Below are positions 1-28,819 of a DNA stretch of 64,000 nt, piece by piece; the stretch's first letter is position 1; every line of letters begins with the position of its first letter. The translations under genes and the position numbers were made by a program. Origin of the DNA: Candidatus Melainabacteria bacterium 17Bon1m (lineage in GTDB: Bacteria; Cyanobacteriota; Vampirovibrionia; Obscuribacterales; Obscuribacteraceae); assembly GCA_032128875.1 (NCBI GenBank), contig JAVLKG010000015.1, forward strand, positions 1 to 64,000, written 5' to 3'. The notes under the pieces were generated by a model that saw only the letters and a program-made list of their open reading frames with translations, was not told the DNA's origin and did no database searches.

Positions 1-352
1 TCGAAAAGCGAAAATGGCAGAGGTTTTAGCTCGTTCTTTTGAGCAGGACCTGCTACATGGTTTAGTGAAGTCATACGAAAAAATGAAGAGCCGGCGATTG
101 CCGGCCCTTCAAATGAAAACTCGGAACCGGGCATGCTCAATCCCGAGTTTCGTCACAGCGTCACACGAAGTAGAAGCAGATGCCGAGGAGAGTGTAGAAC
201 GCGAGCAGGCCCACACCTTCCAGGTTTGTGCGGGCAAACGCTGCTGAAGCGCCTATCGGCAGACTTTCTTGATAGACAAGACGAAACGGCAGCGCAAGCA
301 CCATGCCTGCGCCACCGTGTTCGTCATTTACCGACATGCTTGCGCGGAGCGT

Positions 353-1009
353 TTACTCCTCGCCCGCGACCATGGCGTGCGCACCCCAGAAGAGTTGCGA
401 CTCCATGTAGTCCTCGGCAGTGAACTGCCGCGCAGTGCCGCCGACACCTTCCGGTCGATTGAAGAACGCGGCGTGGTTGCGCGCCATCGCCGGCGGTGCC
501 ATGGGTTCGTCCTTCTCGGTGATGTGCGCGTTGACAGTGATCACCTGCCAATCAGCGTCCACCGTCTCCGGCTCGGACTTTCCGGGTGGCGTCCAGGTGC
601 GCTCTTCGAGCTTCAGTGCATCCTTGTGGTAGAGGATGACGTCCACCCATTTGGACGGCGTCTTCTTGGCGCCGACCACGACCGACTGGATGTACGGCGC
701 TTCGCCGGGCAGACCACCCGGGCGAATGCCGACAGTGCTGCGCACTTCCATACCCGCTTCGAGCTTGACGATGCTGGTGTAGAAGCGACCCTCGCAGACA
801 GCTTCGGGCAGCCTCAACTTGATGATGAGCCCGTCGGGGCGCACCACCGTGACAGCAGCGCCGTCGGCAGCCAGGCATGCGCCGACGAGCTTCAGCAGCT
901 CATCGAACGTGTTGCCCGTCGCCGGCTCGAAGTGCGTGAAACGCGACTTGGCGGTTTGCCGGTACACCATCGGGTTGAGCCCGACCGTGCACGATTTGTA
1001 CTTGCTCAT
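353..1009 (-). CDS. DUF3228-like hypothetical protein
   Basis: 218-aa ORF with GC-rich codon bias and an AAAGGAG RBS. Motifs VDVILY, DADWQVITV, EPMAP, GxGG and ESQLFWGAHA match my recollection of DUF3228. Confidence 0.65.
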   Translation of the reverse strand: MSKYKSCTVGLNPMVYRQTAKSRFTHFEPATGNTFDELLKLVGACLAADGAAVTVVRPDGLIIKLRLPEAVCEGRFYTSIVKLEAGMEVRSTVGIRPGGLPGEAPYIQSVVVGAKKTPSKWVDVILYHKDALKLEERTWTPPGKSEPETVDADWQVITVNAHITEKDEPMAPPAMARNHAAFFNRPEGVGGTARQFTAEDYMESQLFWGAHAMVAGEE

Positions 1010-1119
1010 TCGCTTTGCTCCTTTCTATCAGAGTTTTTCGATTCAGATTCAGGAGTGAGCCACCGGCGGCTGGCAGCGAAACTTGCTGCCAACCGCCCTG
1101 CTTCAACATCCTCCAGCGA

Positions 1120-2652
1120 CTAGCAGCAGTCCTTGCCGCCAGCCACCACGGGCGCCACCGCCGGTTTCACCGAGGAGGCGTCAGCTTCGAGCGAAGCCAG
1201 CGCAGCCTTGATGTCATCCGGCGTCATCTTGCGGTAGTCCTCCACGCGCTCGTCGAACCACTTCTCGGCGCCGGCGGCATCGGTGAATTCACCATCCGCC
1301 TGCGCGTCGAAAGCATGCTCTTTGATGACGCGGAAGATGGGGCCCGGCTTGAAGCCCCTCGCGATGATCATCTTGCCGTCCAGCAACTGCGCAGCGTTGG
1401 GCCGCATCGTCGGGGACGGGTCGTTTCTCATCGCCTCCAGCAAGTTCAGGTAGTACTCCCGGTTGGAGTCTGCCTGGCGATCAGCCAGCGGCCTGCCGGT
1501 ACCCATCGAGTCGGCGTGCTGCATCTTGATCAGGTCCATGATGTCGGGACGCGACATCAACTTGACCATCTTCTTGCGGCTGATCTTCGGGTCGTTGTAG
1601 TCGTGCATCTGCATGTGCAGGCGCACGATTTCCGAGACCCGGTGCGTCGTGTCGGACGACAGCTTCAGCCGGCGGCAGATGACTTTCGCCATCTCGCAAC
1701 CGACCTCGGCATGCCCCTTGTTGCTGACGCGAACCACCTCCTTGCCGTCGATGATTTCGACGCGGGTGGTCATGGTGCGCGGCTTGGCGATGTCGTGGAG
1801 CAGCACGCCGAGCATGAACTCGAACGACTTCTCCGCTTCCATCGCTGCCACCGCAACCACCATCAGGGTGTGCACCCAGGCGAGACCTTCCGGGTGCCAG
1901 ATGGGATCACCCATCGCATTCTCGCCGACCATCTCCAGCATCTCGGGCACGAACTGCGCCATCAGCCCGGTATCCATCAGGATCTCGAGACCGGTGACCG
2001 GGTCCTTGCTGAGCAAGATGCCTTCCAGCTCCGCGGCGATTCTCTCGAACGCGACGCCCGGCCGGAGAGTCGGAGCGTACGTTTTCAGCGCAGCCGTCAA
2101 GGCGGGGTCCACCTTGAAGCCGAGCTTGGCAGCGAAACGCGCCACCCGCATCATGCGCAGGCGGTCTTCGGCAATGCGCTGGGCCGGGTCGCCAACCGCA
2201 CGGATGATGCGGTTTTTGATGTCCTGGCGCCCGCCGAAGAAGTCGAAGATTTCTCCCGTGAACGGGTCTTCGAACATCGCGTTGATGGTCAGGTCACGCC
2301 GCTCCGCGTCCCTCTTGAGCGCTTCCATGGGGTCGAGCCCGCTCAGGAGAATGACGGAGTCAGGGCGACGGTCGTCGCTGTACTGCCCGTCACCGCGGAA
2401 CGTCGCGATTTCGATCTGGACACCTTCGCGCACGACGATGATGATGCCGAAGGCCTCACCGACCAAAAGGCACGTGTCGTTCTTGAAGATTTCCTTGATC
2501 TCTGCAGGAGTTGCGTTGGTCGCGACGTCGTAATCCTTGGGAGTCTTCCTCAGGATTCGATCTCGCACGCAGCCCCCGGCGAACACGGCAAACTTGCCGT
2601 TCTTCTTGAGCTGCCTTACGACAGCCTTGCCGATTCTTCTGTCTTTGTTCAT
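1120..2652 (-). CDS. cca: CCA tRNA nucleotidyltransferase (class II) with HD domain
   Basis: Motifs AGGCVRD, KDYDVAT, EIATFR, RRDLTINAM, EDRLRMMR, ERIAAEL and LLHDIAKP. Start moved to ATG 2652, which has a GGAGGA RBS. Confidence 0.9.
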   Translation of the reverse strand: MNKDRRIGKAVVRQLKKNGKFAVFAGGCVRDRILRKTPKDYDVATNATPAEIKEIFKNDTCLLVGEAFGIIIVVREGVQIEIATFRGDGQYSDDRRPDSVILLSGLDPMEALKRDAERRDLTINAMFEDPFTGEIFDFFGGRQDIKNRIIRAVGDPAQRIAEDRLRMMRVARFAAKLGFKVDPALTAALKTYAPTLRPGVAFERIAAELEGILLSKDPVTGLEILMDTGLMAQFVPEMLEMVGENAMGDPIWHPEGLAWVHTLMVVAVAAMEAEKSFEFMLGVLLHDIAKPRTMTTRVEIIDGKEVVRVSNKGHAEVGCEMAKVICRRLKLSSDTTHRVSEIVRLHMQMHDYNDPKISRKKMVKLMSRPDIMDLIKMQHADSMGTGRPLADRQADSNREYYLNLLEAMRNDPSPTMRPNAAQLLDGKMIIARGFKPGPIFRVIKEHAFDAQADGEFTDAAGAEKWFDERVEDYRKMTPDDIKAALASLEADASSVKPAVAPVVAGGKDCC

Positions 2653-2788
2653 ATCGATTGTCCTCCGGTTAGAGGTTTCGTTACTTGGAACGCTGATGCG
2701 CAACAGCCACGGGGGCTGTTGTGACTGTCTGAGCAATCAGCGCTCGCTGACTGCCGCTTGCTTCTCTCAAGGCAGGCCAAAGGGCGAT

Positions 2789-2872
2789 GCATGGCATCGC
2801 CCCTAAAGGCGAATTACGCATGGCATCGCTCTACAGGCGAATTACGAGTGGCGTCGCCTGAAGGCGAACTAC
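2789..2872. repeat. Three tandem 27-29 bp hairpin-bearing repeats
   Basis: GCATGGCATCGCCCCTAAAGGCGAATTAC / GCATGGCATCGCTCTACAGGCGAATTAC / GAGTGGCGTCGCCTGAAGGCGAACTAC. Confidence 0.85.
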
Positions 2873-2910
2873 CAATCTTGCTTGCCTCTCAAGAGTTCGC
2901 GACGGTCAGT

Positions 2911-3627
2911 TCAGGCTGCGTGCCTGTCTGCCCGCCACTGGTGCCCGCGAAAGAGCCCGCGCACATGCGTGGGGTTTGGCGAGCGGAACGCGTCGTAGTT
3001 ATCGCGGTGCGGACGGTCCCACCAGCGACTCTCCGGCGGCACGTCGCCGTCGAAGACGTAGAAGCCGTCGTGAAGGCGAATGACCTGCAGGCAGATTTCG
3101 CCTTCGAGCGTCGGGTGCACGTAGCTGCCGTCCTTGAGATACAGCTTGTCGCCGCTGCGCCCGAGCTGCTTCATGTCCACGAAACCCCAGCTTCCGCGGG
3201 GGATGGAGTGAAGCTCTCCAGCGAAGCGCGCATGATCGTGACCCCACGCGCAGATGCCGATGATGCGGCCGCCGTGGATGGGATCGCGATGACGTTCGAT
3301 GCCGCGGTTGAGGCTGCGGACATAGACGCCATAGTCGTGCGGGTAGCTGTAGGTGTCGCTGTGGTTGTAGTTCCACCAGCGGTTGGACATGAAGACGTTG
3401 TCGTCGTAGACGTGCACGAGATCTTCCACCTTCACGACTGCGAGAGTCGCATCGTCATCCATTTCGGATTTGACGATGGTTTCGCGCTCGAAGAAAAGGT
3501 GCTCGCCGTCACGACGAAGACGGTTGGGCGATGTCCAGCCGAAGCTGCCGTTGGGCATCCGGTCGATGGAACCCGCATAGGTCGCGAGACCAGCGAAAGG
3601 AAATGCCTTCGAGAGTGCTTTTGTCAT
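2911..3627 (-). CDS. Hypothetical protein with an internal domain duplication
   Basis: Codon-biased ORF with GGAG RBS before ATG 3627. The two halves are similar (AGSIDRMPNGSFGW...LRRDGEHLFF vs AGELHSIPRGSWGF...LGRSGDKLYL). Confidence 0.75.
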   Translation of the reverse strand: MTKALSKAFPFAGLATYAGSIDRMPNGSFGWTSPNRLRRDGEHLFFERETIVKSEMDDDATLAVVKVEDLVHVYDDNVFMSNRWWNYNHSDTYSYPHDYGVYVRSLNRGIERHRDPIHGGRIIGICAWGHDHARFAGELHSIPRGSWGFVDMKQLGRSGDKLYLKDGSYVHPTLEGEICLQVIRLHDGFYVFDGDVPPESRWWDRPHRDNYDAFRSPNPTHVRGLFRGHQWRADRHAA

Positions 3628-4141
3628 CTTCAACTCCATAGTTGAGTGTTTCACAACGCGTCGCATGAAGCCACACCACAAACGTGCTCACGCTGTTGCG
3701 CGAGGGCGTCTCTGGAATGGCTCAGGCAGACAAGCTCCATCACCTGTATCCGCTCTCAAACAAGCTCGAGTCAAACCGAAACCAGCCGAAGCAACATAGT
3801 TGCCGGAGCGGGAGCCCAGAGTGAGAGTCTATGTTTGGGTTTGGATGGATGTACTGACTTAGTTGCAGGTGAAAAAGAGTACTTACGGTGTAGCAGAGCC
3901 TTTGGTTGAATCGGAAATATTCGTGCTTGAAGAAAAAACGCCCGCCTGTGCGTTTCTTAATAGGCCCAGTCATGGTCTTGAGCTGTCACCAATTAGCGTA
4001 CGATCTCGATCTAATTAGTAGAAGCCGCACTAGACTTCCCTTCTCGCCGTTCTGCATAGCCTCGTTAAGCGGCGCTAATGTTTAACGGTTTTGCTCATTT
4101 TCTCGCCTTGTACCCCTCCTCCAATTCGAATTTTGCCTTCT

Positions 4142-4302
4142 CTCCGAAAACCAGGAATTTTTCGGAGTGCTGAGGTCTCGAATCGCCTGACTGGTAAGCG
4201 TTTTCGGGGAAATAGAGATTGGTGTAGGCGGAAAGCCTGAAAAGCCTTGCTGGAGTTTGATATCCGGGCTTTGGTGCTCCGAAAAACGGAGATTTTTCGG
4301 AG
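4142..4302. repeat. Dispersed ~160-bp non-coding element, copy 1
   Basis: CTCCGAAAA-N8-TTTTCGGAG at 4142-4167 and 4277-4302. The reverse complement aligns without gaps to 28450-28610. Confidence 0.85.
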
Positions 4303-4396
4303 TGAAAGGAGGGGGTGAAACTTTGATCTATGCGCGGTCGAGATTCACGCGAGAAAAAGGCAGTGATCAGAAGAAACTTTCAGCTTAATTGATCAA

Positions 4397-4561
4397 GAAA
4401 CTCAAATGCGATTTAAAAAAGCACCTTAGCTTTCAGATCAAAACATCCAATGGGATCTGAAAAAGCATTTTGGTTTTCACTTGAAAAACATCGAATGCGA
4501 CTTGAGAAAGCATCTTGGCCTTCACGTCGAAAACATCAAATGCGATGTGAAATGCATTTTG
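4397..4561. repeat. Degenerate 45-bp tandem repeat, about 3.7 copies
   Basis: Units start at 4397, 4441, 4486 and 4531. Consensus is approximately AAACATCNAATGCGATNTGANAAAGCATYTTGGNYTTCAC. Confidence 0.85.
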
Positions 4562-5170
4562 TTCGTGCGAGCGGAGATGAAACGCGCCCCCGCGTGCCTG
4601 AGCCAAATCACGCGAGCTTTCTTTGCAAAGGAACATTAGAGACTGCGCTAGCTACGTTAGCGGGCGTTCATAAATGCCCGGCATAAGTATTAAGCTCGAA
4701 ATTTAAAAGCTTTTCTGCAAACCAAGGGCCTGTCCGAGTTTCAAAAAAGGCCTAAGAGCAAGCGCCTGCTTGATGCTTTCTTGACTTCCGGGTGTCGCTA
4801 ATGCCTAGTGTGCAAATACCATCTGCATTTCTTCTACAAGAACCACTTCCGATACCGACCAAAAGCTGACACTTAGCGATTCTCCAAACTTCAACCTCCT
4901 GGCTCACACCAGGCTGTGCGAAGACGTGTCGCGTGTTGTCTTTTCGAAGCATTAGCCAACAGGCGCCACTTCGCGCTCCTGGTGAAAGCTTTCGGGTTGG
5001 ACTGAGGCGCGCTCCGTGCGTTTCAGTGATTGGCGGCGGTTGGACGTGGAAGCGTGCAATGGAGCGAAGCAGGCGGCATGGTGCCGTTTGCAATCTGTGT
5101 AAACCGGCAACGCGCGAAGAGGCTCATGTTGAGCCTCTTTTCGTTTAGCCACAAACGAAAGGTGAAAACT

Positions 5171-7234
5171 ATGAATCGTTCCAAGAACAACATCAAGCTG
5201 CCGGTCGGTCGTCGTCTGGGTGCGGTGACGCTCCCCACCGCCACCTCCGCCGGCAACGAACACCACACGCAAGTCGTCGTGGTGGGCAAGGGCACCGAGA
5301 ACTTCCAGTTCCCGAGCCCGACCACGCTCGTCTCCAACGCGCTGCAGCGTGACGAAGCGAAGAAGGCGAAGGGCAAGGGCAAGGGCAAGAGCAAGAGCAA
5401 TAAGGTTCCCAAGGAGCCGGCCGGCAGCAAGCAGATCGTCGACCACGAGACGGCTCTGCAGGAAGCCGAGCGCTTCAAGCACCACACGCCCGTCTCGGCC
5501 GAAACCCGTTCGGCCTGGCAGGAAGCTTCGCCCCGCGCGCAAGCGCTCAAGGCGACTTTCCAGGGCTCGGTCCGTGAGCTGCTCGCCACCATGACCTCCG
5601 GCGCCGACAACGACGAGATCGTTTCGAACCTTGAGGGACTCGGCACGGGCAACCGCGTCATCACGGTCCTGCCGCAGGGCGAGACGAAGGAGTCGTACAC
5701 CGACGGCAAGACCCTGCTGGCGGTGGCGGACATGATGCAGAAGGACATGATGGCTCGTCAGTTCGATGGTCTTTACGAGGCCCGTTTCGGTCGCCTCGTG
5801 ACCGCCGTCGAATGGGCGCTGGGCAACATGGAGTCGGAGTACCAGCCGGCGTTCCAGAGCCTCAATGCTCAGCTCGAGAAGCTCATCGAGAGCTACAAGG
5901 AGGCCCTGCCGAAGCTGATCGCCGAACTGTCGAAGCGCAATCCCGGCGCTCCGCTGATGGCGATCGTGCAGAAGGCGATCGAGCTGCTCGACGAAGAGCT
6001 CGCGCAAATCCTGTACGTCCTGCGGGTGTACACGGACTGCGTGGAGCAGCGTCGTGACGGCAAGTTCGCTCGCCAGCTCAACAGCTGCGCGTTCTTCTTC
6101 AAGTGCGTCCACCAGCTCTACTGGACGGGCGACATGGAGAACGCTCTGAAGGGCAAGGCGACGTCGCCCATCAAGGGCGGCGCCGAGCAGGTCGGTGCGG
6201 TGTTCCTCGCTCGTGTGACGGCGTCGGGGCTGGCGACCATCCCCGGCTCGCGCGGACCGATCGGCGCTCACGCGCTGCAGGTTCCGTACGAGATGCTGGA
6301 CTTCCTCGTCATCAACTTCCCGCTCTTCTGCCACGAGTCCCGGCACAACGTCTACCACGACGTGGTCGGTCTCGAGCAGCAGGCGACGAAGGCGATGCAG
6401 AAGGACATCCTCGCCGCCATCAAGTCCGGTGCGGTCAAGCTGTCGGTGTCGACCATCACCGTCGGCAAGCAGAAGATCCCTGCTGACCAGATGTTCGCGA
6501 AGATCATCACCGACTGGCTCGGCGAGATCGACGCGGACGGCATCGCGGTTCTGTTCACCGGCGAGGCGTTCGGTGACAGCATGATCTCGTCGTTCCCCGC
6601 GATGATGATCCGCGACGCTGCGGTGTCGACGAAGACCAATCTTCTGCGCACCTCGTCGCACTTCGACCTGGTGAAGACGAAGAGCGGCGTCGCGCTGCAG
6701 TTCGAACCGCACCCGGTGGACTACGTTCGCGTCTACTTCGTGGCAGCCCTGTTCGACGAGATCGGCTTCCCCGAAGCCGCCACTCGTCTCAGGAAGCTGG
6801 CCGACTTCGCGGTCGGTGACGAGATTCCGGAGAACATCACGTTCGAGCACTCCGACGAGGAGGGCAAGGTCGACCTCACCATCGAAGTCCCGACCAAGGA
6901 CTTCCTGGCGTTGGCCGCGACCGTGATGAAGTCGCTCATCCGGACCAAGCACGAGGCGCTCGGGGGCAACTCCAACGGCGATCTCGTGATGTGGACTGCC
7001 AAGCGGCAGGAGAAGGTCGTCCTGCTGAAGGACTTGCTCAAGGCCGGCAAGAACGAAGTGCCGACCGACAAGGGTGACATCCACGTCACCTACGTCGCTG
7101 CCGCGGCTATCTCGGCTGTCTTCGACCTCGTTCGCGAGGGCAAGGCGACCGACGATACGCTCAAGCAGGTGAGCGAGAACGCGATGGTGATGCTGGAAAC
7201 CTTGAAGGCGCGAGCCGACAAGGCCAAGGCCTAA
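5171..7234 (+). CDS. Large hypothetical protein, putative HExxH zinc metallopeptidase-like
   Basis: 687 aa from ATG 5171 (AAGGTG RBS) with strong codon bias. Contains CHESRH (HExxH), WLGEIDAD (ExxAD) and HPVDYVR. Confidence 0.7.
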   Translation: MNRSKNNIKLPVGRRLGAVTLPTATSAGNEHHTQVVVVGKGTENFQFPSPTTLVSNALQRDEAKKAKGKGKGKSKSNKVPKEPAGSKQIVDHETALQEAERFKHHTPVSAETRSAWQEASPRAQALKATFQGSVRELLATMTSGADNDEIVSNLEGLGTGNRVITVLPQGETKESYTDGKTLLAVADMMQKDMMARQFDGLYEARFGRLVTAVEWALGNMESEYQPAFQSLNAQLEKLIESYKEALPKLIAELSKRNPGAPLMAIVQKAIELLDEELAQILYVLRVYTDCVEQRRDGKFARQLNSCAFFFKCVHQLYWTGDMENALKGKATSPIKGGAEQVGAVFLARVTASGLATIPGSRGPIGAHALQVPYEMLDFLVINFPLFCHESRHNVYHDVVGLEQQATKAMQKDILAAIKSGAVKLSVSTITVGKQKIPADQMFAKIITDWLGEIDADGIAVLFTGEAFGDSMISSFPAMMIRDAAVSTKTNLLRTSSHFDLVKTKSGVALQFEPHPVDYVRVYFVAALFDEIGFPEAATRLRKLADFAVGDEIPENITFEHSDEEGKVDLTIEVPTKDFLALAATVMKSLIRTKHEALGGNSNGDLVMWTAKRQEKVVLLKDLLKAGKNEVPTDKGDIHVTYVAAAAISAVFDLVREGKATDDTLKQVSENAMVMLETLKARADKAKA

Positions 7235-7282
7235 CCGTCGCCCTGGGGTCTCAGCGCAGGGATGCGCCGAGATATAAAAACG

Positions 7283-7306
7283 GACCGGCGCAATTCCGCG
7301 CCGGTC
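7283..7306 (+). other. Intergenic GC-rich stem-loop
   Basis: GACCGGCGC-AATTCC-GCGCCGGTC. Confidence 0.6.
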
Positions 7307-7402
7307 TTACTGTCTGTGTAACTCGAAGCCGGCATGCGCAGGGGCAGGAGCAAAGTGCTCCTGCCCTTTTGCGTGCGCCGAGAAAAACTGGAGAAATTTC
7401 CT

Positions 7403-8464
7403 ATGGCAGAAATCATCGCAACAGTCGCTGCTTTCCTCGGGGGCGCTTACGCTCTCGTCAAAGGCATTCTCATCCTCGTGCTGCTCGTCGTGTGCATCAT
7501 GGCGGTGATGAGCGTCATCGGTCTTATCGCTTCGCGCGGTAAGTCCGTTTCGAGCAAGTTTCGCAAGAAGCATGGGCTCATGCTCTATCACGACAAGACC
7601 ACCGACGTCGACGTATCGACGGCGATCAAGTGTCGCGAGAAGGGCGGCTATCTCACCGCCGATCCCGCCGATGACGAGAACGCTGCCACTCCCGACGCGC
7701 TCTGCGCCACCGAGAAGCCGGTCGCGGTCCTGCGCTTCACCGGCGATACGATGGCCAACGGACGACACACGTTCTCGCGTCTGGTCGACGAGGTCGTCCT
7801 CAACAAGGCCAAGTTCGGCGGCGTCGTTGTCGTCGTCGAATCGCCTGGCGGCGGCGTCTCGGTGTACGGTCTCATGTACGCCCAGGTGCTCCGTCTCAAG
7901 GACGCCGGGCTGCATGTGCGCGTCTGCGTCGACAACGTGGCGGCGTCGGGCGGCTACCTCATGAGCCTTCCGGCGGACGTCATCATGGCGGCGCCCCTGT
8001 CGATGGTCGGCTCCATCGGCGTCGTGTCCGAGTTCTTGAACTTCCACGAGTTCCTGACCGCCATCGGCATCACGCCGCTGACCCTGACGGCCGGCGCGCG
8101 CAAGCGCACGCTGACTCCGTTCGGTGCGGTCGACCAGGGCAAGATCGACGACTACACCAAGCAGCTCGTCTCCATCCACGACCAGTTCAAGGCGCTCGTC
8201 GCTCGCCACCGGCCCAACGCCAAGTTGGAGCTGGTCGGTGAAGGCGATCACTGGACGGCGCAGGAGTCGGTCGCTCTGGGTCTCGGTCTGGTCGATGAAA
8301 TCGGCACGAGCGCTGACTACCTGCTCAAGCTGAACATGGACCGCAACCTGGTCTTCATCAGCGAGAAGAAGAACCGCTTCGAAGGCGGTCTGCTCAAGCT
8401 GGTGACGGGCAGCCTCGACCACGTGCTCGCCCGCATCGCCGAGCGTACCAACCGGATCAGCTAA
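7403..8464 (+). CDS. sohB: S49 family peptidase (SohB/SppA-like)
   Basis: N-terminal TM segment; motifs ESPGG, YGL, VAASGGYLM, GSIGV, TAGARKRTLT and LGLVDEIGTS. Confidence 0.85.
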   Translation: MAEIIATVAAFLGGAYALVKGILILVLLVVCIMAVMSVIGLIASRGKSVSSKFRKKHGLMLYHDKTTDVDVSTAIKCREKGGYLTADPADDENAATPDALCATEKPVAVLRFTGDTMANGRHTFSRLVDEVVLNKAKFGGVVVVVESPGGGVSVYGLMYAQVLRLKDAGLHVRVCVDNVAASGGYLMSLPADVIMAAPLSMVGSIGVVSEFLNFHEFLTAIGITPLTLTAGARKRTLTPFGAVDQGKIDDYTKQLVSIHDQFKALVARHRPNAKLELVGEGDHWTAQESVALGLGLVDEIGTSADYLLKLNMDRNLVFISEKKNRFEGGLLKLVTGSLDHVLARIAERTNRIS

Positions 8465-8573
8465 CGCTGTCCGAATCCTGTAACCGCGCTGTGTTCAGAC
8501 AAACAGCAAGGTTCTAACCGCGGGCGCTCAACTTCGAGCGCTCGCAAATAGTCTGGTAAGGAGATCTGATCGT

Positions 8574-9623
8574 ATGAATTACAGAAGGTCAACTGCCGAG
8601 GTTGCTCTTGAGCGTGCTCGAAAGCGCCTCTATGCCATCGCCGGCGGAAGCCACGACAGCGGCAATCCGCGCCTGGCGCGCATGACTCTCGCCCAACGCA
8701 TCGAGTTCTGGCAGACGCCGGAATTCAAGGCGTATCTCGCTGCTCTCAAGGCGGCTGGTGTCACGCCCTTCCACCTGAAGGACGTCGACAAGACCCAGGG
8801 CGCCGGTGATGCGTTCACGTTCATGTTCAAGCTGCGCGCCGACGAAGGCTGGTTCAGCCGCCGTCAGCGCAAGACCATCGCCGACTTCCTGCGCGAGCAC
8901 TCCGCCGTCGCCAATCCTTCTCGCAAGGATCTCACTCCGCATGCTCTTTTGCGCGAGTGGATCCGCCACGAGGAGACCGGCGAAGGCATCGAGATGATGG
9001 ACTTCTGGCGCGTCTACTGGAAGTCGCAGCTCGGTCTCACCAAGGCCGAGAAGCTCGCTCAGGTGGAAGCGTGCGCTCCGCTCTACGCCAACAAGGTCTT
9101 CCCTGGTGTCCGCGAGGAAAACCAGTTGCTGACCGAACTCGGCGTCGAGGTGGTCATCGTCTCCAACGGTGACCAAGAGCTCGCGATCGCCATCGCTCCG
9201 CAGATGGGGATCAAGCCGGAGAATGTCGTCGGGTCGCACCTCAGGTACGACAAGAACGGTGTTTCCATCGGCGTGAACCACAGCTACGAGGTGTTCGGCG
9301 ACGACTGGATGACTCGCCCGCAGCCGGGCAAGACGCTGTCGTTCCACTACTGGCTGCATCGTGAGCGGGCGCGGTTCTTCCGCGATCGCATCAACGAAGA
9401 CCGCTTCGTCATCCTCGCACGTGACGGCGACTCCGCCTCCACGGACGGTGGCATGATGGTGCACGGTCACGAAGCCAAAATCGGCAACTTCATGATCGCG
9501 GTTCCGAACGAACCGAAGCGCATCGAGAAGTTCTACCCGATGATGGACAAGTACGGCTGGACTTGCGGCAACTTCATCACCTTGGTGCAGGAGCCGTCCA
9601 TCACCGGCTTCAAGCCGGACTAA
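8574..9623 (+). CDS. HAD superfamily hydrolase/phosphatase
   Basis: Motif I DVDKT, motif II VIVSNG, motif III Lys (PGK) and motif IV GDSASTD; AAGGAG RBS. Confidence 0.75.
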   Translation: MNYRRSTAEVALERARKRLYAIAGGSHDSGNPRLARMTLAQRIEFWQTPEFKAYLAALKAAGVTPFHLKDVDKTQGAGDAFTFMFKLRADEGWFSRRQRKTIADFLREHSAVANPSRKDLTPHALLREWIRHEETGEGIEMMDFWRVYWKSQLGLTKAEKLAQVEACAPLYANKVFPGVREENQLLTELGVEVVIVSNGDQELAIAIAPQMGIKPENVVGSHLRYDKNGVSIGVNHSYEVFGDDWMTRPQPGKTLSFHYWLHRERARFFRDRINEDRFVILARDGDSASTDGGMMVHGHEAKIGNFMIAVPNEPKRIEKFYPMMDKYGWTCGNFITLVQEPSITGFKPD

Positions 9624-9656
9624 CAGCGCGACCGCGGCTGTTTCAAAACTCCTTAG

Positions 9657-9688
9657 ACGGACAGTCGCACGGTGCGGCTGTCCGTTTT
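9657..9688 (+). terminator. Stem-loop followed by a short T tract
   Basis: ACGGACAGTCGCA-CGG-TGCGGCTGTCCGT then TTT. Confidence 0.55.
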
Positions 9689-9712
9689 CGGGCTACTTGA
9701 GGAAACAATCAC

Positions 9713-10231
9713 ATGTACACTCTCTTACTTCTCGGTGCGGTGGGTCTGATTCTCGGTGTCATCGTCGGCGCCAGCATCACGGACGGCTCGAAGATCGCTG
9801 GCGGCATCATCGGTTGCGTCATCGGGCTGGTTGTCGGCTTCATCGGTGCAGCCGTCGGCGGTGCCTTCGTTCCGCAAAAGGATGTCGTCTACGGACCGGC
9901 GAACCTGGTCGCGATGCGCTCTTCCGATGGCGTCTCCGGCACCTTCATCTGGGGCTCGGGCACCATACGGCAGGGCACGTCCTACAACTTCATGATGAAG
10001 CTCGACGACGGCAGCATGACACCGGGTTCGGTGCCGGCTGACAATCTCGTCCGCATCATCGAGGACGAATCCCTGAAGAACACCGGCACCTGGAGCACGA
10101 CCATCCGCGAAGCCGATACGACCTGGCCGTACTACAAGTGGACGCTGTTCAGCAGGGACCGCAACAAGTACGTGAAGCAGGAATTCCGTGTTCCTGTCGG
10201 CACGGTCGTGCAGACCTTCAAGGTCGAGTGA
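9713..10231 (+). CDS. Membrane protein with two Gly-rich TM helices and a soluble beta-rich domain
   Basis: GAGG RBS, hydrophobic GxxxG-rich N-terminus, codon bias. Confidence 0.8.
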   Translation: MYTLLLLGAVGLILGVIVGASITDGSKIAGGIIGCVIGLVVGFIGAAVGGAFVPQKDVVYGPANLVAMRSSDGVSGTFIWGSGTIRQGTSYNFMMKLDDGSMTPGSVPADNLVRIIEDESLKNTGTWSTTIREADTTWPYYKWTLFSRDRNKYVKQEFRVPVGTVVQTFKVE

Positions 10232-11816: not shown

Positions 11817-13652
11817 ATGTTTTCCAGGCTAAATGCAACTCAAAAGGGCATGATCCTGGTCATTGTGCCAGTCGTTTTCCAGCTTCTGTTCATCGCGGCA
11901 ATCTACCAGCCGCTGCACAGGTTCTCGCAGTCTCTCGACTCTATGCGCCAAGCAAAAGACATTCTATTTGCTCTTCAGGAAAATGAAATTGAATTGACCA
12001 AGGTGCTCGCTTTCATTGGCGGCAGCGGCGGTAATCTGGGTGGAAAAGAAGGCATGCTTTTGGACAAGCTGCACCGCGGCTTAGTCGCGGAGAGCATCTG
12101 GAAAAACTTCGATCGCACGAAAAATCCTGAGCTCGCGCACGCTGTCGAGCTGGGTGAAAAACTGGAATGGAATTTCGAAAATTTCAAGCGCAAGGGAAAC
12201 GAGCGTTGGTCGCACGGGTTACGGGCATTCCAGAGCTGGATGTTTGGTCCGGGAATCCAGCAGTTTTTCGGCGCTTACAACGACCAAAAAGAGTTGACGC
12301 GAACAGTTCTAGACATCGAGCGTCACACTGTTGCGCAACAACCGGAAGAATTGGCGAGCTTCAAAGCTTCTGTTCTGTTGATTTTGTGGTCGGGCTTTGC
12401 TCTGAGCGTCTGCATCTCTGGGGGGCTTGCGTTTGTGTTTACGCGAGAAATGGTGCTGAGGCTTTCGGCGATCGAAAGGCGAGCATCGTTGTTGGCAGTT
12501 GATAATCCTTCCGCAATAAGCGGCAATGCCGACCCTGGAACAGACGAGATAGCAGAGCTGGATGCTGCGCTCCGTGCTGCATCAATAAAACTCGCTGAAG
12601 CGCGAGCCAGGCAAGCCGTAGTGTTGGACAATTCCGCAGACGTTATCTGCTCTCTGGACGCGCGTCTGAAATTCTCCGCCGTCGGTCAAGCATCCAAGAA
12701 GGTATGGGGCTTTTCACCGGACGAGCTGCTCGGGCAGTCGCTGTTGAACATTATTGCCGGCGACACTGCTGGTAATACCAATAAGATATTTGCAGCGATT
12801 CGAGAAGGTGAGGCAGAAGGTAAGTTAGAAAACATAATTCTGTGCAGTGACGGCACTCAAAAGAACTCTACATGGAGCGTCTCTTGGTCTGCCGAGCGCC
12901 GGCAATTCTTTTGTGTCGTCCATGATGTAACAGAACTGCGCACCATTGAAAAACTGAAGCAGCACTTTCTTTCCGTTGCCAGTCATGACTTGCGCGCTCC
13001 GCTCACCTCTGTAACGTTGAATATCTCTATTATCACGGAAGCACAAGCAGACCAAATAACTCCGGAGGCCAAGCGCGAACTGGAGCGTGTGCAAATCAGT
13101 GCACAGCGATTGAGTTCTCTGGTTAACGAGCTTTTGGAGTTGGACAAGCTCGAAGCAGGAAAGTTCGGTCTGGAGCTGGCTCGGGTCGGTGTTTCCGATG
13201 CATGCGAAGCAGCAAAGACTCTTCTCTTCGGGCTTGCTCGTCAGTCTAAAGTGACATTGGAAGGACCGCGCGGCGATGCGGTGGTGAAAGCAGAAGAAAA
13301 ACGCCTGGTGCAAATCATCACCAATTTGCTGTCTAACGCAATTAAGTTCTCGCCGGAAAACGGCACAGTGACATTGTCTGTTGAAGTTGAAGACGCCAAT
13401 GCATTGATTCGTGTGACAGACAATGGCCCAGGCATTGCACCGGCAGAAGCTTCACTCATTTTCGAGAAGTTCAGTCAAACCAGGAGCGCTGCGACTACAG
13501 AATACAAAGGCACGGGGTTGGGTTTGGCTGTCGTTAAGGCGCTAGTAGAGTCTCATGGCGGAACAGTTGGCGTAGACAGCGAAGTTGGAAAAGGCAGCAC
13601 TTTCTGGGTGAAGCTTCCTCTTGCTACAGGCAACTGGGAGGGCGCTTCTTAA
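11817..13652 (+). CDS. Sensor histidine kinase (2TM-HAMP-like-PAS-HisKA-HATPase), type A
   Basis: H-box SHDLRAP, N-box NLLSNAIKF, DNGPG and KGTGLGL; PAS segment DNSADVICSLD. Confidence 0.95.
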   Translation: MFSRLNATQKGMILVIVPVVFQLLFIAAIYQPLHRFSQSLDSMRQAKDILFALQENEIELTKVLAFIGGSGGNLGGKEGMLLDKLHRGLVAESIWKNFDRTKNPELAHAVELGEKLEWNFENFKRKGNERWSHGLRAFQSWMFGPGIQQFFGAYNDQKELTRTVLDIERHTVAQQPEELASFKASVLLILWSGFALSVCISGGLAFVFTREMVLRLSAIERRASLLAVDNPSAISGNADPGTDEIAELDAALRAASIKLAEARARQAVVLDNSADVICSLDARLKFSAVGQASKKVWGFSPDELLGQSLLNIIAGDTAGNTNKIFAAIREGEAEGKLENIILCSDGTQKNSTWSVSWSAERRQFFCVVHDVTELRTIEKLKQHFLSVASHDLRAPLTSVTLNISIITEAQADQITPEAKRELERVQISAQRLSSLVNELLELDKLEAGKFGLELARVGVSDACEAAKTLLFGLARQSKVTLEGPRGDAVVKAEEKRLVQIITNLLSNAIKFSPENGTVTLSVEVEDANALIRVTDNGPGIAPAEASLIFEKFSQTRSAATTEYKGTGLGLAVVKALVESHGGTVGVDSEVGKGSTFWVKLPLATGNWEGAS

Positions 13653-15571
13653 TGCGATTCTCCTTCAATCTCGTCACTCGCACGATTATTCTTACCGTTT
13701 TGCTAATTCTTGGTCAGCTTGCTTTCATCCTTGTTTTGTCGGATGTTTTGCGAGAATCTCAAGAAAGAATCGAAAAGCAATGGCGCTCTGAAAATCTGAT
13801 TCGATTAACCTTTTCCATTTGCCGTGCGTTTTCTGAATTGGTGATCTTTTCCCATGTCCCGCAGCAGATGCTTGATGTTGCCGGTGTTGACGGTCCTTCA
13901 GCCGTCTCGAAAGCCAAACGAGATATGCAGATTTTGCACGGACTCGCTTCTGTGGACCCGCTGAAACGCGATGCTGTAGTGAAACTCTTAGGTTCGGCAG
14001 GAGTTCTCACTCACACAATCGAGCTGGCTATTCAGGAGAAGGATCGTGCAGCAGGGCAGCCCCTCTCCTATGTTGTGCCCTTCGCTTACCGCAAGATTGT
14101 GAATGACAATGCGGTCATTTTCCTGGACGCCGTGGAAGAAATCGTCGCGATAGAAAAGGTGCAGCATAAGGAAGCACATTCGCACGCCTCTGCATTCTCT
14201 GCTCTCACCGCGACCCTTGTGGCTGCTGCTCTTGCCAGTATTGTTGTGGCAGTTATTCTCGGTTTTGCCTACGCTGTCTCGATCCGGCGCCCACTAAAGC
14301 ATCTCAGTTTGAACGCTAGACTGTTATCTGCGCAGCAAACCCTTTTGCCTGAATTAAAGCAAAACGATGAGTTTGGCAGACTGGATGCACTTTTGCACGC
14401 AACCTCCCGCGAAGTCGAAGCGACAATGATGCAGGAGCGAGAGACGATTGCGAACGCCGCTGACTTCATCTGTGTGCTTGATGAGGAGGGGGATTTCAAA
14501 AGCGTAAATCCATTCGCGCAAAAGATGCTCGGCATCATTCCAGAGGCGTTAATCGGTCAAAATTTGCATGATTTGACGGTTCCTGAAGAAAGTTTGCTTG
14601 CTGATGAGCAGCTACGTTCATCTGTTCAAACTTCTGACATTCGTCAGTTCGAATTGCGCCTCAAGACCGCCACTGGCAGTGTGGTTGACACTCGCTGGTC
14701 CTGTCTTTGGTCTCAAGCCGAGCGCATGATATTTTGCGTTGTTCGTGACGTGACTGAAGATAAGAAAATTGAACAGTTGAAGCAGGATTTTGCCAACATG
14801 ATCAGCCATGATCTGCGCAGTCCGCTTATGGCAATGGGCAATTCATTCACGCTGCTCAAAGCTGGTTTGAAGGGTGAACTGCCGGAAGATGCACTTAAGC
14901 GTATTGATTTGTCAGCGCGCAATGTCGAGAAGCTTATAGTGCTGGTCAATGATCTTTTGGACTTCCAAAAGCTGAAGGCTGGCAAGATGGAACTGCTTCT
15001 CGAAGACGCTTCGCTTCAGTCGATAATCACTGATGCGGCAGATCTTCTGGAAGAAACAGCACGAGACAAGAATGTTGCAATCGAGCTGCCTGAGGGGGAC
15101 ACACGACTGCTTTGCGATAAGAACAAACTGTTGCAGGCTGCTGTCAATCTAATTTCCAACGCGATCAAATTCAGCGGGGAAAACGGCAAGGTAACTGTTG
15201 CGGTACGTTCTACCGAGGACAGAGTAACCTTTGCTGTCACAGACACCGGACCCGGAGTTCCCGCGGATTTTCAACAGAGAATTTTTGAGCCTTTTGAGCA
15301 AGCTCCCTCAGGTAAGAAGAGCGAGGGCACAGGATTGGGACTGGCGATCTGTAAGCTTGTGGTCGAGGCGCATGGCGGTACTATTCGTGCAGAAAATCTT
15401 GCTGATTTTGAAGAGCAGAAAACAACAGCTTCTTCTTCTTCTTCTTCTTCTTCTTCTTCTTCTTCTTCTTCTTCGAGTGGTGAAGCTGCGATAGTTTCAC
15501 ATGGAAGTGTCTTTACTATTGAACTGCCAAGAATTGGTTCATCGGCATCGAATAATGACGGTGGCGGCTGA
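13652..15571 (+). CDS. Sensor histidine kinase, type B, with poly-Ser insert
   Basis: SHDLRSP, NLISNAIKF, DTGPG and EGTGLGL; TAATG overlap with the upstream gene. Confidence 0.95.
   Translation: MRFSFNLVTRTIILTVLLILGQLAFILVLSDVLRESQERIEKQWRSENLIRLTFSICRAFSELVIFSHVPQQMLDVAGVDGPSAVSKAKRDMQILHGLASVDPLKRDAVVKLLGSAGVLTHTIELAIQEKDRAAGQPLSYVVPFAYRKIVNDNAVIFLDAVEEIVAIEKVQHKEAHSHASAFSALTATLVAAALASIVVAVILGFAYAVSIRRPLKHLSLNARLLSAQQTLLPELKQNDEFGRLDALLHATSREVEATMMQERETIANAADFICVLDEEGDFKSVNPFAQKMLGIIPEALIGQNLHDLTVPEESLLADEQLRSSVQTSDIRQFELRLKTATGSVVDTRWSCLWSQAERMIFCVVRDVTEDKKIEQLKQDFANMISHDLRSPLMAMGNSFTLLKAGLKGELPEDALKRIDLSARNVEKLIVLVNDLLDFQKLKAGKMELLLEDASLQSIITDAADLLEETARDKNVAIELPEGDTRLLCDKNKLLQAAVNLISNAIKFSGENGKVTVAVRSTEDRVTFAVTDTGPGVPADFQQRIFEPFEQAPSGKKSEGTGLGLAICKLVVEAHGGTIRAENLADFEEQKTTASSSSSSSSSSSSSSSSGEAAIVSHGSVFTIELPRIGSSASNNDGGG
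15431..15472 (+). repeat. (TCT)14 microsatellite encoding poly-Ser
   Basis: Perfect in-frame TCT run followed by TCG AGT. Confidence 0.95.
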
Positions 15572-17388
15572 TGTTTTCCCGGCTGAACATCACTCAGAAA
15601 GGTCTTTTGATGGTTCTTATACCGGTGGCTTTTCAGTTGCTTTTTATTGCTGCGTTGAATGTCCCGATGAATCGGTTTTCGCATGAATTGGAATCCATGC
15701 GGATCGGCAAGCGAATTCTCTTTGCTATTCAGGAGAACGAAATTGATCTCTCTAAGATGATCTGGGCCCTTATGGTAGGCGGACCACAGGAAAGTATTGG
15801 CTATATCGTCGCATATCATGAGAAAGTTCATCGATTGCATAATTCGTCGCTGTCTTATCAGACGACTGATCCTGAACTCAGCAGGCTGGCTCGAGAAGGG
15901 CGCAAAATCTGGGCTCAGTCTGAAGAAATGTGGGACTCTGCGCCCCCTGGTTCTAATCCGTCCATGGGGATCGGCTGGATTGGCATGCAATCCAGCATGA
16001 AGGGTTTTAAACTCCTAAAAGATCAGCGAATCCTTATGAACAGAGTTCTTGCTATTGAGAGGCAGAAGGTAGCCCAGCAGCCAGAGGAAATCGCAGCTCT
16101 GCGGAATACTCTTGTTCTCTTTTTGTGGTTGGGTTTTGGCGCCAGTTGCCTGATCTCTGTTGCGCTTATGGTGTTCTTTTCTCGCGACATTGTTAATCGA
16201 TTGTCTGTGATTGCCGATAAGGCACAATTGCTCACATTTGGAAAACCAGTGCATGCCGAGTTTTCTGAGGCGGACGAGATTAGTGAGCTTGAGCGCACGC
16301 TCTCCACGACTTCGCTAAAACTGGCTGAAATTCGCAATCGCCAAGCTGTCATTCTCGATAATTCTGCCGACGTAATTTGTTCGCTCGATGCGAAATTCAA
16401 ATTCGCTGCAGTTGGTGAAGCGGCGAGCAAGCTTTGGGGACTTTCTCCGGACCAATTGCTAGGCAAATCAGTCCTGAGTATGTTAACTGCTGATACCGTA
16501 GACAGTACCAGTGCTGCACTAGAGCGAATTGCTTCAACACATGGCGAAGGCAAGGTTGAAAACGTTGTCAAATGCGGTGATGGCAGCTTGAAGAATTCTG
16601 TATGGATTGTTCTTTGGTCGCCAGAAAAGCGCACATATTTCTGTGTCGTGCATGATGTTACCGATTTGCGCAATGTGGAGAAGCTCAAACAACACTTCAT
16701 ATCCGTCGCCAGCCACGACTTGCGGGCACCGCTCACGTCCGTAACTCTCAACGTTTCTATCTTGACTGAATCAATGAAAGAAGAGCTGCCGGCAGGAATA
16801 GTCGGCGAGTTAAACCGCGTCCAGACCAGCGCTCAGCGACTTGCTGACCTGGTCAATGAGTTGCTAGAACTGGATAAATTGGAAGCAGGAAGACTTTCCG
16901 TAGAATTGAAAAGAGTGTTGGCGTCCGATGCCTGCGAAGCCGCTAAAGACTTATTATTCGGGCTTGCGAGGGAAGCCGGCGTCTCTATCGTCATGTCCGC
17001 GAACGACGCATTTGTCATGGCGGAGGAAAAACGGCTTGTGCAGATGATCTCGAATTTGATGTCCAACGCAATTAAGTTCTCTCCCCGCGGTGGAAAAATT
17101 GAGATTGATATTCGCTCCGAAGCGCCATTCGCAGTGATCAGCATCAAAGACGAGGGCTGCGGAATGAGCCCTCAAGAATGCGCTTCTATATTTGAGAAGT
17201 TCAGCCAGGCGCATTCTGCAAAGTCGACTGCGATGAAAGGAACTGGTCTGGGCCTTGCCGTAGTAAAAGCCCTTGCAGAGGCTCATGGCGGGCGAGTTGA
17301 GGTGGTCAGTGCAGTCGGACAAGGCAGCACTTTTTCGCTCTACATTCCACTAGCCTCATCGGATAACACGTCGGAGGTGCAAGCATAG
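15571..17388 (+). CDS. Sensor histidine kinase, type A' (paralog of 11817-13652)
   Basis: Starts MFSRLNITQKG; SHDLRAP and KGTGLGLAVVKAL; TGATG overlap. Confidence 0.95.
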   Translation: MFSRLNITQKGLLMVLIPVAFQLLFIAALNVPMNRFSHELESMRIGKRILFAIQENEIDLSKMIWALMVGGPQESIGYIVAYHEKVHRLHNSSLSYQTTDPELSRLAREGRKIWAQSEEMWDSAPPGSNPSMGIGWIGMQSSMKGFKLLKDQRILMNRVLAIERQKVAQQPEEIAALRNTLVLFLWLGFGASCLISVALMVFFSRDIVNRLSVIADKAQLLTFGKPVHAEFSEADEISELERTLSTTSLKLAEIRNRQAVILDNSADVICSLDAKFKFAAVGEAASKLWGLSPDQLLGKSVLSMLTADTVDSTSAALERIASTHGEGKVENVVKCGDGSLKNSVWIVLWSPEKRTYFCVVHDVTDLRNVEKLKQHFISVASHDLRAPLTSVTLNVSILTESMKEELPAGIVGELNRVQTSAQRLADLVNELLELDKLEAGRLSVELKRVLASDACEAAKDLLFGLAREAGVSIVMSANDAFVMAEEKRLVQMISNLMSNAIKFSPRGGKIEIDIRSEAPFAVISIKDEGCGMSPQECASIFEKFSQAHSAKSTAMKGTGLGLAVVKALAEAHGGRVEVVSAVGQGSTFSLYIPLASSDNTSEVQA

Positions 17389-26187: not shown

Positions 26188-26947
26188 TAGGACACCTTTT
26201 GCTGTTTGCGCAGGGTTCCCAGATGGCCAAACAAGACCGGACAATGCCGACGGCTCTGTGAAGAACAACAGAGTTTTCATCGCAAATAGCCTTGTTTTGG
26301 CAGCAGGATCATCCCTGTGCCGTCACGCTATTTGCGCCAGGTATCCGTCATCGAGCGAGAGGTCTCGGTCGTGCAGCCCTGACTCAATCAAACGTTTGCC
26401 GCGCCTGCTTCCATACCGGCCGTCGAAGCCTTCCACCACCGGTGGTAAGGGGAATGCTTCGAGAGTGGAAGTCGGATTGGAAGTCGAGGATTGTTTGTGT
26501 GAAACTACATGGCGAACGGTTGATGCCATAAACTACAGTTTTGTTGATGGTAAATCCATCAAAACGTGCTCCTTTAGATAAATTCCTTAGATGTTGCCTG
26601 GCGCAGCTTGCGCCACCGTATATGGTGGCGCAACGCAAGACGCCCGATACGAAGTGTATCGAGCAGCAAGAAATTTTTGAGGTCGGAAAGGAATTAGATG
26701 CAAGGGACAATAATCGGGTGGGCGTAAACTTAGCGTGAACGCAGCAAGCGCGTTAGGAGTATTGAAACGGCTTGTTAACACTAGCGCTCATTACTGAATA
26801 CCATATGAGGTAATAGAAGCGATTTTGAAAGAGAAACGCGAGCATGCCCCAAACGTCGTTGAAATATTTAGATGACCTCCCTGTTCCGAGTCTCACAACC
26901 CGGGCAGTTTGTAGTTACCAAGCCGCAAACCCCACAAGGAGGTCATC

Positions 26948-28224: not shown

Positions 28225-28260
28225 AATGCAGAGCACTGACTAACGCCAGTGCTCTGCATT
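28225..28260. terminator. Perfect 14-bp stem-loop downstream of the transposase
   Basis: AATGCAGAGCACTG-8nt-CAGTGCTCTGCATT. Confidence 0.55.
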
Positions 28261-28449
28261 GCAGCGTCGAAAACCATGAATTTCACTGGCTTAAAGGACA
28301 AAAAAGGTCAAAAAGTTAAAAAAGTGCCTGAGCGTCGCTGAAATTTCCCCTGCTAAGATCCTGGTGGTCAGGGCAGGTCAGGAAAAATCAACGACGCCCA
28401 GGACACTCCCACTCAGGCGATCAGGTTTCCCAAATCACACTTGCTTTCT

Positions 28450-28610
28450 CTCCGAAAAGTCCCAAGTTTTCGGAGCGCCGATACCCAGAATCGACCGCGG
28501 AGCAAGGCTTTTGGAACTTTTCAACAGAGCAGCACCTCAAAAGTCCGCAATACCTTACGGAGCAAGGCTTTTGGAACTTTCGCACTACGAAAACTTACGG
28601 TTTTTCGTAG
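28450..28610. repeat. Dispersed ~160-bp non-coding element, copy 2 (inverted relative to copy 1)
   Basis: Palindromes at 28450-28475 and 28585-28610, plus a 23-bp direct repeat CGGAGCAAGGCTTTTGGAACTTT at 28498 and 28558. Confidence 0.85.
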
Positions 28611-28819
28611 TGCGTGTTCGAACAATAATTCAAGGTGTCCCTGAGAGCTTGTCCCCCCCGCCGCTCCACTACACCTTTTAGTATTAATCATGCCAACGAA
28701 ATAAGATCGAGGTGAAGACCAACAATCAAGAATCGCCCGGCTCACCCGATTCTCCAATAACTAGCCAGCCTAAGAAGAGCAGCAGACGTCCCTGTCTGTT
28801 GCTCTGTAGGACCTTTAGC

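Follow-up and report, generated by a model that had tools for sequence, protein, structure and literature searches.

A doublet of inverted hairpin units dispersed between genes in Melainabacteria: a tentative REP-doublet-like repeat family

Melainabacteria, the sister lineage of the cyanobacteria that lacks photosynthesis, are represented almost exclusively by metagenome bins. The stretch of Melainabacteria DNA considered here, 64 kb in length and referred to throughout as the window, is by its Pfam content an ordinary chromosomal stretch that encodes, among others, a CCA-adding enzyme, an S49 peptidase, histidine kinases, an FtsH-like protease and a fumarase. Four tandem paralogous histidine-kinase genes of 605-639 aa occupy 11817-19214; their stop and start codons abut, and their products carry HisKA and HATPase_c domains together with, in two cases, PAS. 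Two adjacent paralogous regulator genes of the GntR-aminotransferase (MocR) type, whose ends overlap, are located at 42043-44959. The GC content is 55-63% over positions 1-10000 and mostly 46-53% beyond, a step that coincides with neither of the two elements, e1 and e2, that are the subject of this report. No tRNA or tmRNA was found in the window and, in Pfam searches, the window ORFs scanned contain no integrase, resolvase, ParA/ParB or cas domains.

To the left of e1, the minus-strand ORF at 1120-2736 carries PolyA_pol, RNA-binding and HD domains (Pfam; codon scoring), and a 28-bp tandem repeat of three copies (2789-2872) occupies part of the gap that separates the CCA-adding-enzyme gene from the minus-strand ORF after it. 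As the genes on this side are encoded on the minus strand and the gene to the right (5030-7234) on the plus strand, e1 is situated in a divergent gap of 1.35 kb. The same gap harbours a tandem array (Table 1) whose 45-bp units abut without spacers; motifs like TTGGCTTTCAC within these units are reminiscent of the element's GGCTTT boxes. An array of this type occurs in no other family member. Element e2 lies between two 3′ ends, those of a plus-strand transposase ORF and of the minus-strand FtsH-like gene. The transposase ORF is full length and belongs to the IS256 family (Table 1), a finding that, if recombinase is taken in the broad sense, overturns an earlier statement, made in a preliminary description of this DNA, that no recombinase is encoded in the window. 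It ends 258 bp to the left of e2 and is followed by a hairpin with a 14-bp stem at 28225-28260. The candidate inverted repeats of this insertion sequence (IS), at 26854-26883 and 28369-28396, are a weak 30-nt match, do not resemble the hairpin of the element and leave e2 outside; if they are real, the end of the IS would lie approximately 50 bp from e2. Only one instance of an IS next to a REP-like element was observed.

A pattern search of the window with CTMCGAAAA-N8-TTTTCGKAG, allowing up to two mismatches, returned exactly four matches, which start at 4142, 4277, 28450 and 28585. By chance 0.02 would be expected, and none of 100 shuffles reached four. The palindromes form two pairs with a start-to-start offset of 135 in each, and their four 8-nt loops are all distinct in sequence. 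In the fourth, which reads CTACGAAAA...TTTTCGTAG, a C>A change in one arm is matched by G>T in the other. More generally, the window contains 14 perfect hairpins with a stem of at least 9 bp and a loop of 3-10 nt, and four of these are the family palindromes. Each pair, together with the sequence that it encloses and short outer flanks, constitutes one copy of the element; the parts of e1 and e2 are listed in Table 1. A relaxed hairpin match at 43837 was considered as a third copy and dropped, as it sits within a coding ORF, and an nhmmer profile of seven elements (e1, e2 and five from other genomes, see below) detected no third copy in the window.

Table 1. Coordinates of the two elements, of their parts and of neighbouring features in the window
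Feature	Position	Strand	Basis and remarks
e1, element copy 1: doublet of two inverted hairpin units with 6-nt outer flanks	4136..4308		Pattern, flank alignment, profile
e1 hairpin a, CTCCGAAAA-CCAGGAAT-TTTTCGGAG	4142..4167		Exact match; perfect 9-bp stem
e1 spacer, 109 nt	4168..4276		Reverse complement of AGCAAGGCTTTT at 4240-4251; GGCTTTGG abuts hairpin b
e1 hairpin b, CTCCGAAAA-ACGGAGAT-TTTTCGGAG	4277..4302		Pattern match and stem search
45-bp tandem array, 3.6 copies, 74% matches	4392..4552		Alternatively 89 bp x 1.9; located 90 bp to the right of e1, inside the 1.35-kb non-coding gap
IS256-family (Mutator-type) transposase ORF, 414 aa	26948..28192	+	Transposase_mut, E 2.5e-38, profile positions 18-366 of 379; not part of the family
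e2, element copy 2: doublet of two inverted hairpin units with outer flanks	28444..28616		Pattern, flank alignment, profile
e2 hairpin a, CTCCGAAAA-GTCCCAAG-TTTTCGGAG	28450..28475		Pattern match and stem search
e2 spacer, 109 nt	28476..28584		Holds an exact 23-nt direct repeat, 28498-28520 and 28558-28580
e2 hairpin b, CGCACTACGAAAA-CTTACGGT-TTTTCGTAGTGCG	28581..28614		13-bp perfect stem; arms with matched C>A/G>T change; 26-bp palindrome core 28585-28610

When the 109-nt interiors of e1 and e2 are aligned without gaps in reverse complement, 53 of 109 positions are identical. Shuffled interiors give a mean of 28.0 (sd 4.5) and a maximum of 44 in 10000, and random 109-mers from the window reach at most 45. 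The ungapped direct alignment yields a similar count, 51 of 109. A leave-one-out profile, built from the other six elements, covers e1 at full length with 74.0 or 68.7 bits depending on orientation and scores e2 at 67.2 or 63.9 bits, which corresponds to an orientation preference of 5.3 bits for e1 and 3.3 bits for e2. Each interior is similar to its own reverse complement, which makes the element a quasi-palindrome, and for this reason neither orientation of e1 relative to e2 is clearly favoured. The box AGCAAGGCTTTT occurs at register 26 in both interiors and, in e2, for a second time at register 86, where it belongs to an exact 23-nt direct repeat with copies 60 nt apart. In a spacer that is dyad-symmetric apart from this, a direct repeat suggests that e2 recently underwent duplication or conversion in its interior. 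Much of the preliminary description is thereby reproduced: the four palindromes with two offsets of 135 and four different loops; the compensatory change in the last copy, which falls in a perfect stem; the hand count of about 53 of 109, which proved exact; and the shared box at a common register with a second one 60 nt further on. Its claim that the element is present twice and inverted holds for the two copies and, given the near equality of the direct and reverse-complement counts, is not borne out for the inversion.

Related loci were sought in a genome collection using the pattern CTCCGAAAA-N{6,10}-TTTTCGGAG, which matched at least 117 loci. Loops of 6, 7, 8, 9 and 10 nt occur 18, 21, 27, 28 and 25 times over all matches listed, a distribution that looks like background. 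The majority of these matches represent either hairpins of terminator-like form or pieces of other, larger repeated palindromes that occur in bins of Planctomycetota, Nitrospirae and Lachnospiraceae. Among the matches listed, the doublet architecture occurs only in metagenome-assembled genomes (MAGs) labelled Melainabacteria, Obscuribacteraceae or ‘Cyanobacteria bacterium’. Five of the six loci from such MAGs, again among the matches listed, have a second related hairpin 133-153 bp away (L021, 145 bp; L023, 133 bp; L053, 135 bp; L055, 153 bp; L117, 134 bp), and the sixth, L004, is a solo hairpin. A relaxed two-hairpin test on the loci, at least 117 in number, gave ten positives, five of which are the Melainabacteria-type doublets. 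Another, L072, was set aside as a scaffold duplicate containing a run of N, and L064 and L076 were rejected as members of an unrelated family with a spacing of 81-82 nt. Outside the Melainabacteria-type MAGs, L106 has a second hairpin 116 nt away and the pair in L074 is 1712 bp apart. The seven-element profile found no further full-length copy in the window or in the other listed loci. Leave-one-out profiles recovered six of the seven elements at full length with 50-98 bits, and L055 only at its hairpins.

Other repeats share the arm sequence. Nine loci from Planctomycetota bins (L008, L038, L044, L062, L052, L057, L080, L037 and L046) contain a separate multi-copy palindrome of approximately 50 nt, GTCGCCTTTTT-CTCCGAAAAAGGACGYCCTTTTTCGGAG-AAAAAGGCGAC, with the same 9-nt arms at its core; it is often found at contig ends and therefore probably breaks assemblies. 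In one Nitrospirae bin (L013, L040, L079, L101, L109 and L115) the same arms belong to an unrelated repeat family with a larger conserved context, and in one Lachnospiraceae bin (L012, L027, L034, L066 and L084) they lie inside a palindrome of more than 100 nt, also of an unrelated repeat family.

All seven elements are extragenic, lying between called ORFs. By the ORF calls several of them are placed between convergent genes and, in six of the seven, a gene reads towards the element and stops 50-258 nt away. The genes next to the elements are unrelated to one another and include those for an FtsH-like protein, GcvP, a histidine kinase, a TPR protein and the CCA-adding enzyme. In one MAG at least three family loci are present, each on a separate contig (260 kb, 1.9 Mb and 0.8 Mb). 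By Pfam, the flank ORFs scanned for the five elements from other genomes encode neither a transposase nor an integrase or Y1 domain; for one of these elements (L117) the flank comprises only about 300 bases. In tblastn, 35 proteins of the window matched the listed loci, at least 117 in number, at no more than 28-39% identity and over paralogous domains, which carries no information on the taxon. In blastn searches, e2 had no match in a plasmid collection and e1 none in a phage collection. The recurrence of the architecture in at least three other MAGs, beside unrelated genes, agrees with the earlier view that arms and spacing were kept whilst the filler diverged, and that the two copies in the window are not a recent duplication.

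Each element is a tail-to-tail doublet of two diverged, mutually inverted units of approximately 85-90 nt. A unit consists of an outer flank, a hairpin with near-invariant arms of 9-11 bp (CTCCGAAAA and TTTTCGGAG), a loop of 7-9 nt with no constraint on its sequence and a tail of approximately 54 nt that starts TGCCAAAGCC. The outer flank is TGNATG when read outward (CATNCA inward), with G6 in 14 of 14 ends and T5 in 11 of 14; the bounds first given for e1, 4142..4302, therefore enclose the core and fall at least 6 nt short of the ends. The inner flank is TGC.AAA..C, often TGCCAAAGCC. As the outer flank differs from the inner one at both hairpins, the units are asymmetric, and the two units of an element are in inverted orientation. 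Of the nine base pairs of the arms, five are invariant in the 15 hairpins compared (15/15) and the remaining four are retained in 13-14 of 15. The spacers of the seven elements measure 109, 109, 108, 109, 108, 120 and 128 nt, that is, 108-109 nt in five of seven, and share pairwise identities of 36-66%. The closest spacers cross genomes (L053 and L023, 66%; e1 and L117, 59%), whereas e1 and e2, which share a genome, are 48% identical. From centre to centre the hairpins are 133-135 bp apart in five elements, 145.5 bp in L021 and 154 bp in L055; the latter two distances are approximately one and two helical turns longer (about +10.5 and +19-20 bp) but, with seven elements, this may be chance.

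The spacers are weakly dyad-symmetric in six of the seven elements and otherwise free to drift. Compared with its own reverse complement, a spacer matches at 38-56 positions over the seven elements. The match is 38 of 109 in e1, a value reached by 82 of 3000 shuffles, and 48 of 109 in e2, reached by 5; the corresponding shuffle counts for the six symmetric elements are 82, 5, 0, 15, 44 and 11, and the symmetry of the L021 spacer was not significant against 3000 shuffles. Four elements have their peak of dyad matches at shift 0; the peak is displaced to -1 in L023 and to -2 in L055 (0.43 vs 0.41 at shift 0). As DNA, none of the seven spacers folds better than its shuffles (z from -1.56, the value for e1, to +0.95). 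Whole elements treated as RNA do fold better than shuffles, with z of -2.9 to -4.0, because of the hairpin arms; only e1 forms one long stem in its minimum-energy RNA fold and, in the consensus RNA structure of either strand, the arms pair and no internal helix is present. Covariation over the 15 hairpins is not significant, its score being reached by 78 of 500 shuffles and its number of paired cells by 37 of 500. One compensated arm change stands against unpaired changes in L117a (two), L055b (one) and L021b (one, plus a G-U pair). Conservation thus concerns the sequence of the arms; pairing alone would not account for it, and a protein that recognizes the arms is suggested. Six-frame translations of the seven elements revealed no shared frame or peptide and, at the 14 ends, no direct repeat that could represent a target-site duplication extends beyond the conserved outer flanks.

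The element is genuine and subject to selection, but it belongs to a familiar general type. The reading favoured here, held with about as much confidence as doubt, is that e1 and e2 belong to a dispersed, non-coding, extragenic repeat of Melainabacteria (of the Obscuribacterales type) that resembles REP doublets and is kept by a sequence-specific protein; the shared family by itself makes an origin of the window in that lineage probable. Such a protein, acting in trans, would read the hairpin arms and the short flanks, hence their conservation, and the spacer would need to keep only its length. The reader would most likely be an HUH/Y1 transposase that binds hairpins, of the type known from RAYTs or IS200, with its gene at another place in the genome, and this putative enzyme would copy or maintain the doublets. 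In Pfam searches, neither the window ORFs nor the locus flanks scanned yielded a RAYT, a Y1 transposase or an HUH transposase of another type. A secondary use by the host, such as stabilization of RNA 3′ ends between convergent genes, is possible. Besides the missing transposase, the spacers that do not fold, the hairpin covariation that is not significant, the lack of a visible target-site duplication and the position of e1, in a divergent gap and not at a 3′ end, count against the REP-doublet reading. A more far-reaching proposal, which we think improbable, is that the doublet is a lineage-wide Melainabacteria site and not selfish DNA. Its palindromes, 13 helical turns apart with rarer classes at one and two turns more, would then be wrapped or looped over ~135 bp by a host complex, making it a new dispersed nucleoid or topology site; or a new transposase system that reads hairpins would act on it, in a phylum from which no such system is known.

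Several other explanations compete with that of a REP-doublet-like repeat. If the palindromes act as duplex DNA, they could be sites for a dimeric or tetrameric host protein (a nucleoid-organizing protein, a topoisomerase or a regulator) placed ~13 helical turns apart, on the same face, and joined in a looped or wrapped complex. This would accord with arms kept as sequence and not just for pairing, without significant covariation, with spacers that do not fold, and with a centre spacing held at 133-135 bp in five of seven elements despite the divergence of the spacers, the two outliers being displaced by about one and two turns. It is nevertheless rather unlikely. A half-site spacing that varies from 7 to 9 nt, as the loops do, would be poorly tolerated by a rigid dimer; several elements lie between convergent genes, where a promoter is not expected; no candidate binding protein is linked to any copy; and a dyad-symmetric spacer with asymmetric flanks is better explained by inverted duplication of a unit. 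The hairpins might instead act in transcripts, as 3′-end stabilizers, as terminators or as the two ends of a small RNA, and their perfect stems of 9-13 bp, the genes that read towards six of the seven elements and the better-than-shuffle folds of whole-element RNA, though these derive from the arms, are in line with such a role. However, the stems are followed by TG... and not by a U-tract or T run, and a terminator scan did not call the 9-bp hairpins, finding only an alternative 5-bp stem within one of them. A promoter scan found no sigma-70-like promoter at the elements, and no gene reads into e1. Rfam gave no match in the whole window at the gathering score and, at relaxed thresholds over both element regions and three loci, only chance-level matches (E 0.4-3.4); neither conserved internal structure nor significant covariation was observed. 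An RNA-level function is accordingly considered unlikely.

Models based on other mobile or recombining DNA fare less well. The preliminary description had suggested an old MITE, and a related idea is that the element is the end of the neighbouring IS256-family element, with a DDE transposase acting through terminal inverted repeats. Both ends are indeed inverted repeats of ~35 nt (flank plus hairpin), and a full-length transposase ORF lies near e2. Of the four functions first proposed the MITE is the nearest, the element being dispersed and non-coding with inverted ends, but no target-site duplication accompanies it, and the interiors of its two copies in one genome share only 48% identity, far from the near-identity of MITEs that have moved recently. 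In the window and the flanks scanned, the element does not map to the end of a known IS: a transposase ORF was found within ~2 kb of one of the seven elements, with none in the ORFs scanned around e1 and the five elements from other genomes (for L117, within its short flank), and the best candidate IS repeats are unlike the hairpin and exclude e2. An origin as a MITE or IS end is therefore very unlikely. Inverted arms around a short spacer also form the core site of tyrosine recombinases, which the arms of 9-11 bp around 7-9 nt recall, and two copies 24 kb apart could in principle serve as res, lox or dif-like sites for inversion or resolution of the 24-kb segment that e1 and e2 enclose. This can hardly be entertained: since all loops differ in sequence, and some in length, no two elements share a crossover region; the window ORFs and locus flanks scanned encode no integrase or resolvase domain; and the family is spread over different contigs and gene contexts. 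The check for an island boundary placed the GC shift at ~10 kb, at neither e1 nor e2. The res-like site of the preliminary description falls with this model. Its leader-like integration platform finds no cas genes, an array whose units abut without unique spacers and, at e2, no array at all, and the lack of ParA/ParB domains in the ORFs scanned, together with copies on three contigs of one MAG, speaks against its partition site.

The Melainabacteria doublet defines a repeat family in a poorly known phylum. Among open-access main texts, no paper was found to discuss REP, REPIN or inverted repeats in connection with Melainabacteria or Obscuribacter, and the matches listed for the two 9-nt arms as literature text appeared unrelated, as judged by title and abstract. 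As a conserved dispersed repeat, the doublet would provide a marker for binning and strain typing, is a likely source of assembly breaks, and would offer a handle on the hairpin-reading enzyme or DNA-binding protein that would maintain it. In addition, a fixed, non-folding spacer of 108-109 nt is unusual among REP-type doublets and raises the question of how its length is measured.

Amongst known systems, the doublet is similar to MITEs in being small, non-coding and dispersed, with terminal inverted repeats. It differs from them in its lack of a target-site duplication and in the low internal identity between copies (36-66%), and the only IS in the window that might be a parent, of the IS256 family, has weak candidate inverted repeats unlike the hairpin. 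Elements of the IS200/IS605 group and their miniature derivatives carry subterminal hairpins, on the same strand at both ends, and their Y1 HUH transposase reads single-stranded DNA. The doublet likewise has similar hairpins near both ends and a short conserved motif beside each, but its end units are mutually inverted and neither tnpA nor tnpB is found nearby. The BIMEs of enterobacteria are mosaics of inverted REPs with non-palindromic linkers, and their linker motifs bind IHF or gyrase. Shared features are the two inverted REP-type palindromes, a linker that need not fold and an extragenic position, often at gene 3′ ends; there is no sequence relation, and the spacer of the doublet is longer (108-109 nt).

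REP doublets, REPINs as well as BIMEs, come closest to the element. In the sections of the account by Bertels and Rainey (2011, PMC3337134) on which this comparison draws, a REPIN consists of two inverted REPs and a spacer; the REPs are 94-98% conserved, no two spacers are identical, spacing falls into discrete classes (including a 110-bp class in the GII REPINs of P. fluorescens), the spacers form hairpins, and the elements depend on a RAYT transposase encoded elsewhere. Set against the features given in those sections, the Melainabacteria doublet is likewise extragenic, non-coding and dispersed over the chromosome, with two inverted palindrome-bearing units that are nearly invariant, spacers that are all unlike and discrete spacings (108-109, 120 and 128 nt). 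It departs from them in its host lineage, in its perfect arms with a large free loop of 7-9 nt and in the absence of a RAYT from the window ORFs and locus flanks scanned. A single-copy cognate RAYT gene with REPs at its sides and tens to hundreds of elements per genome are the norm for REPINs; two doublets were seen in 64 kb and at least three copies in one MAG. By the same sections, the doublet also differs in its spacers, none of the seven having a hairpin fold and their dyad symmetry amounting to only 35-52%. As this spacer fold is absent, the element is placed beside the REPINs and BIMEs as a variant, and not as a member of either.
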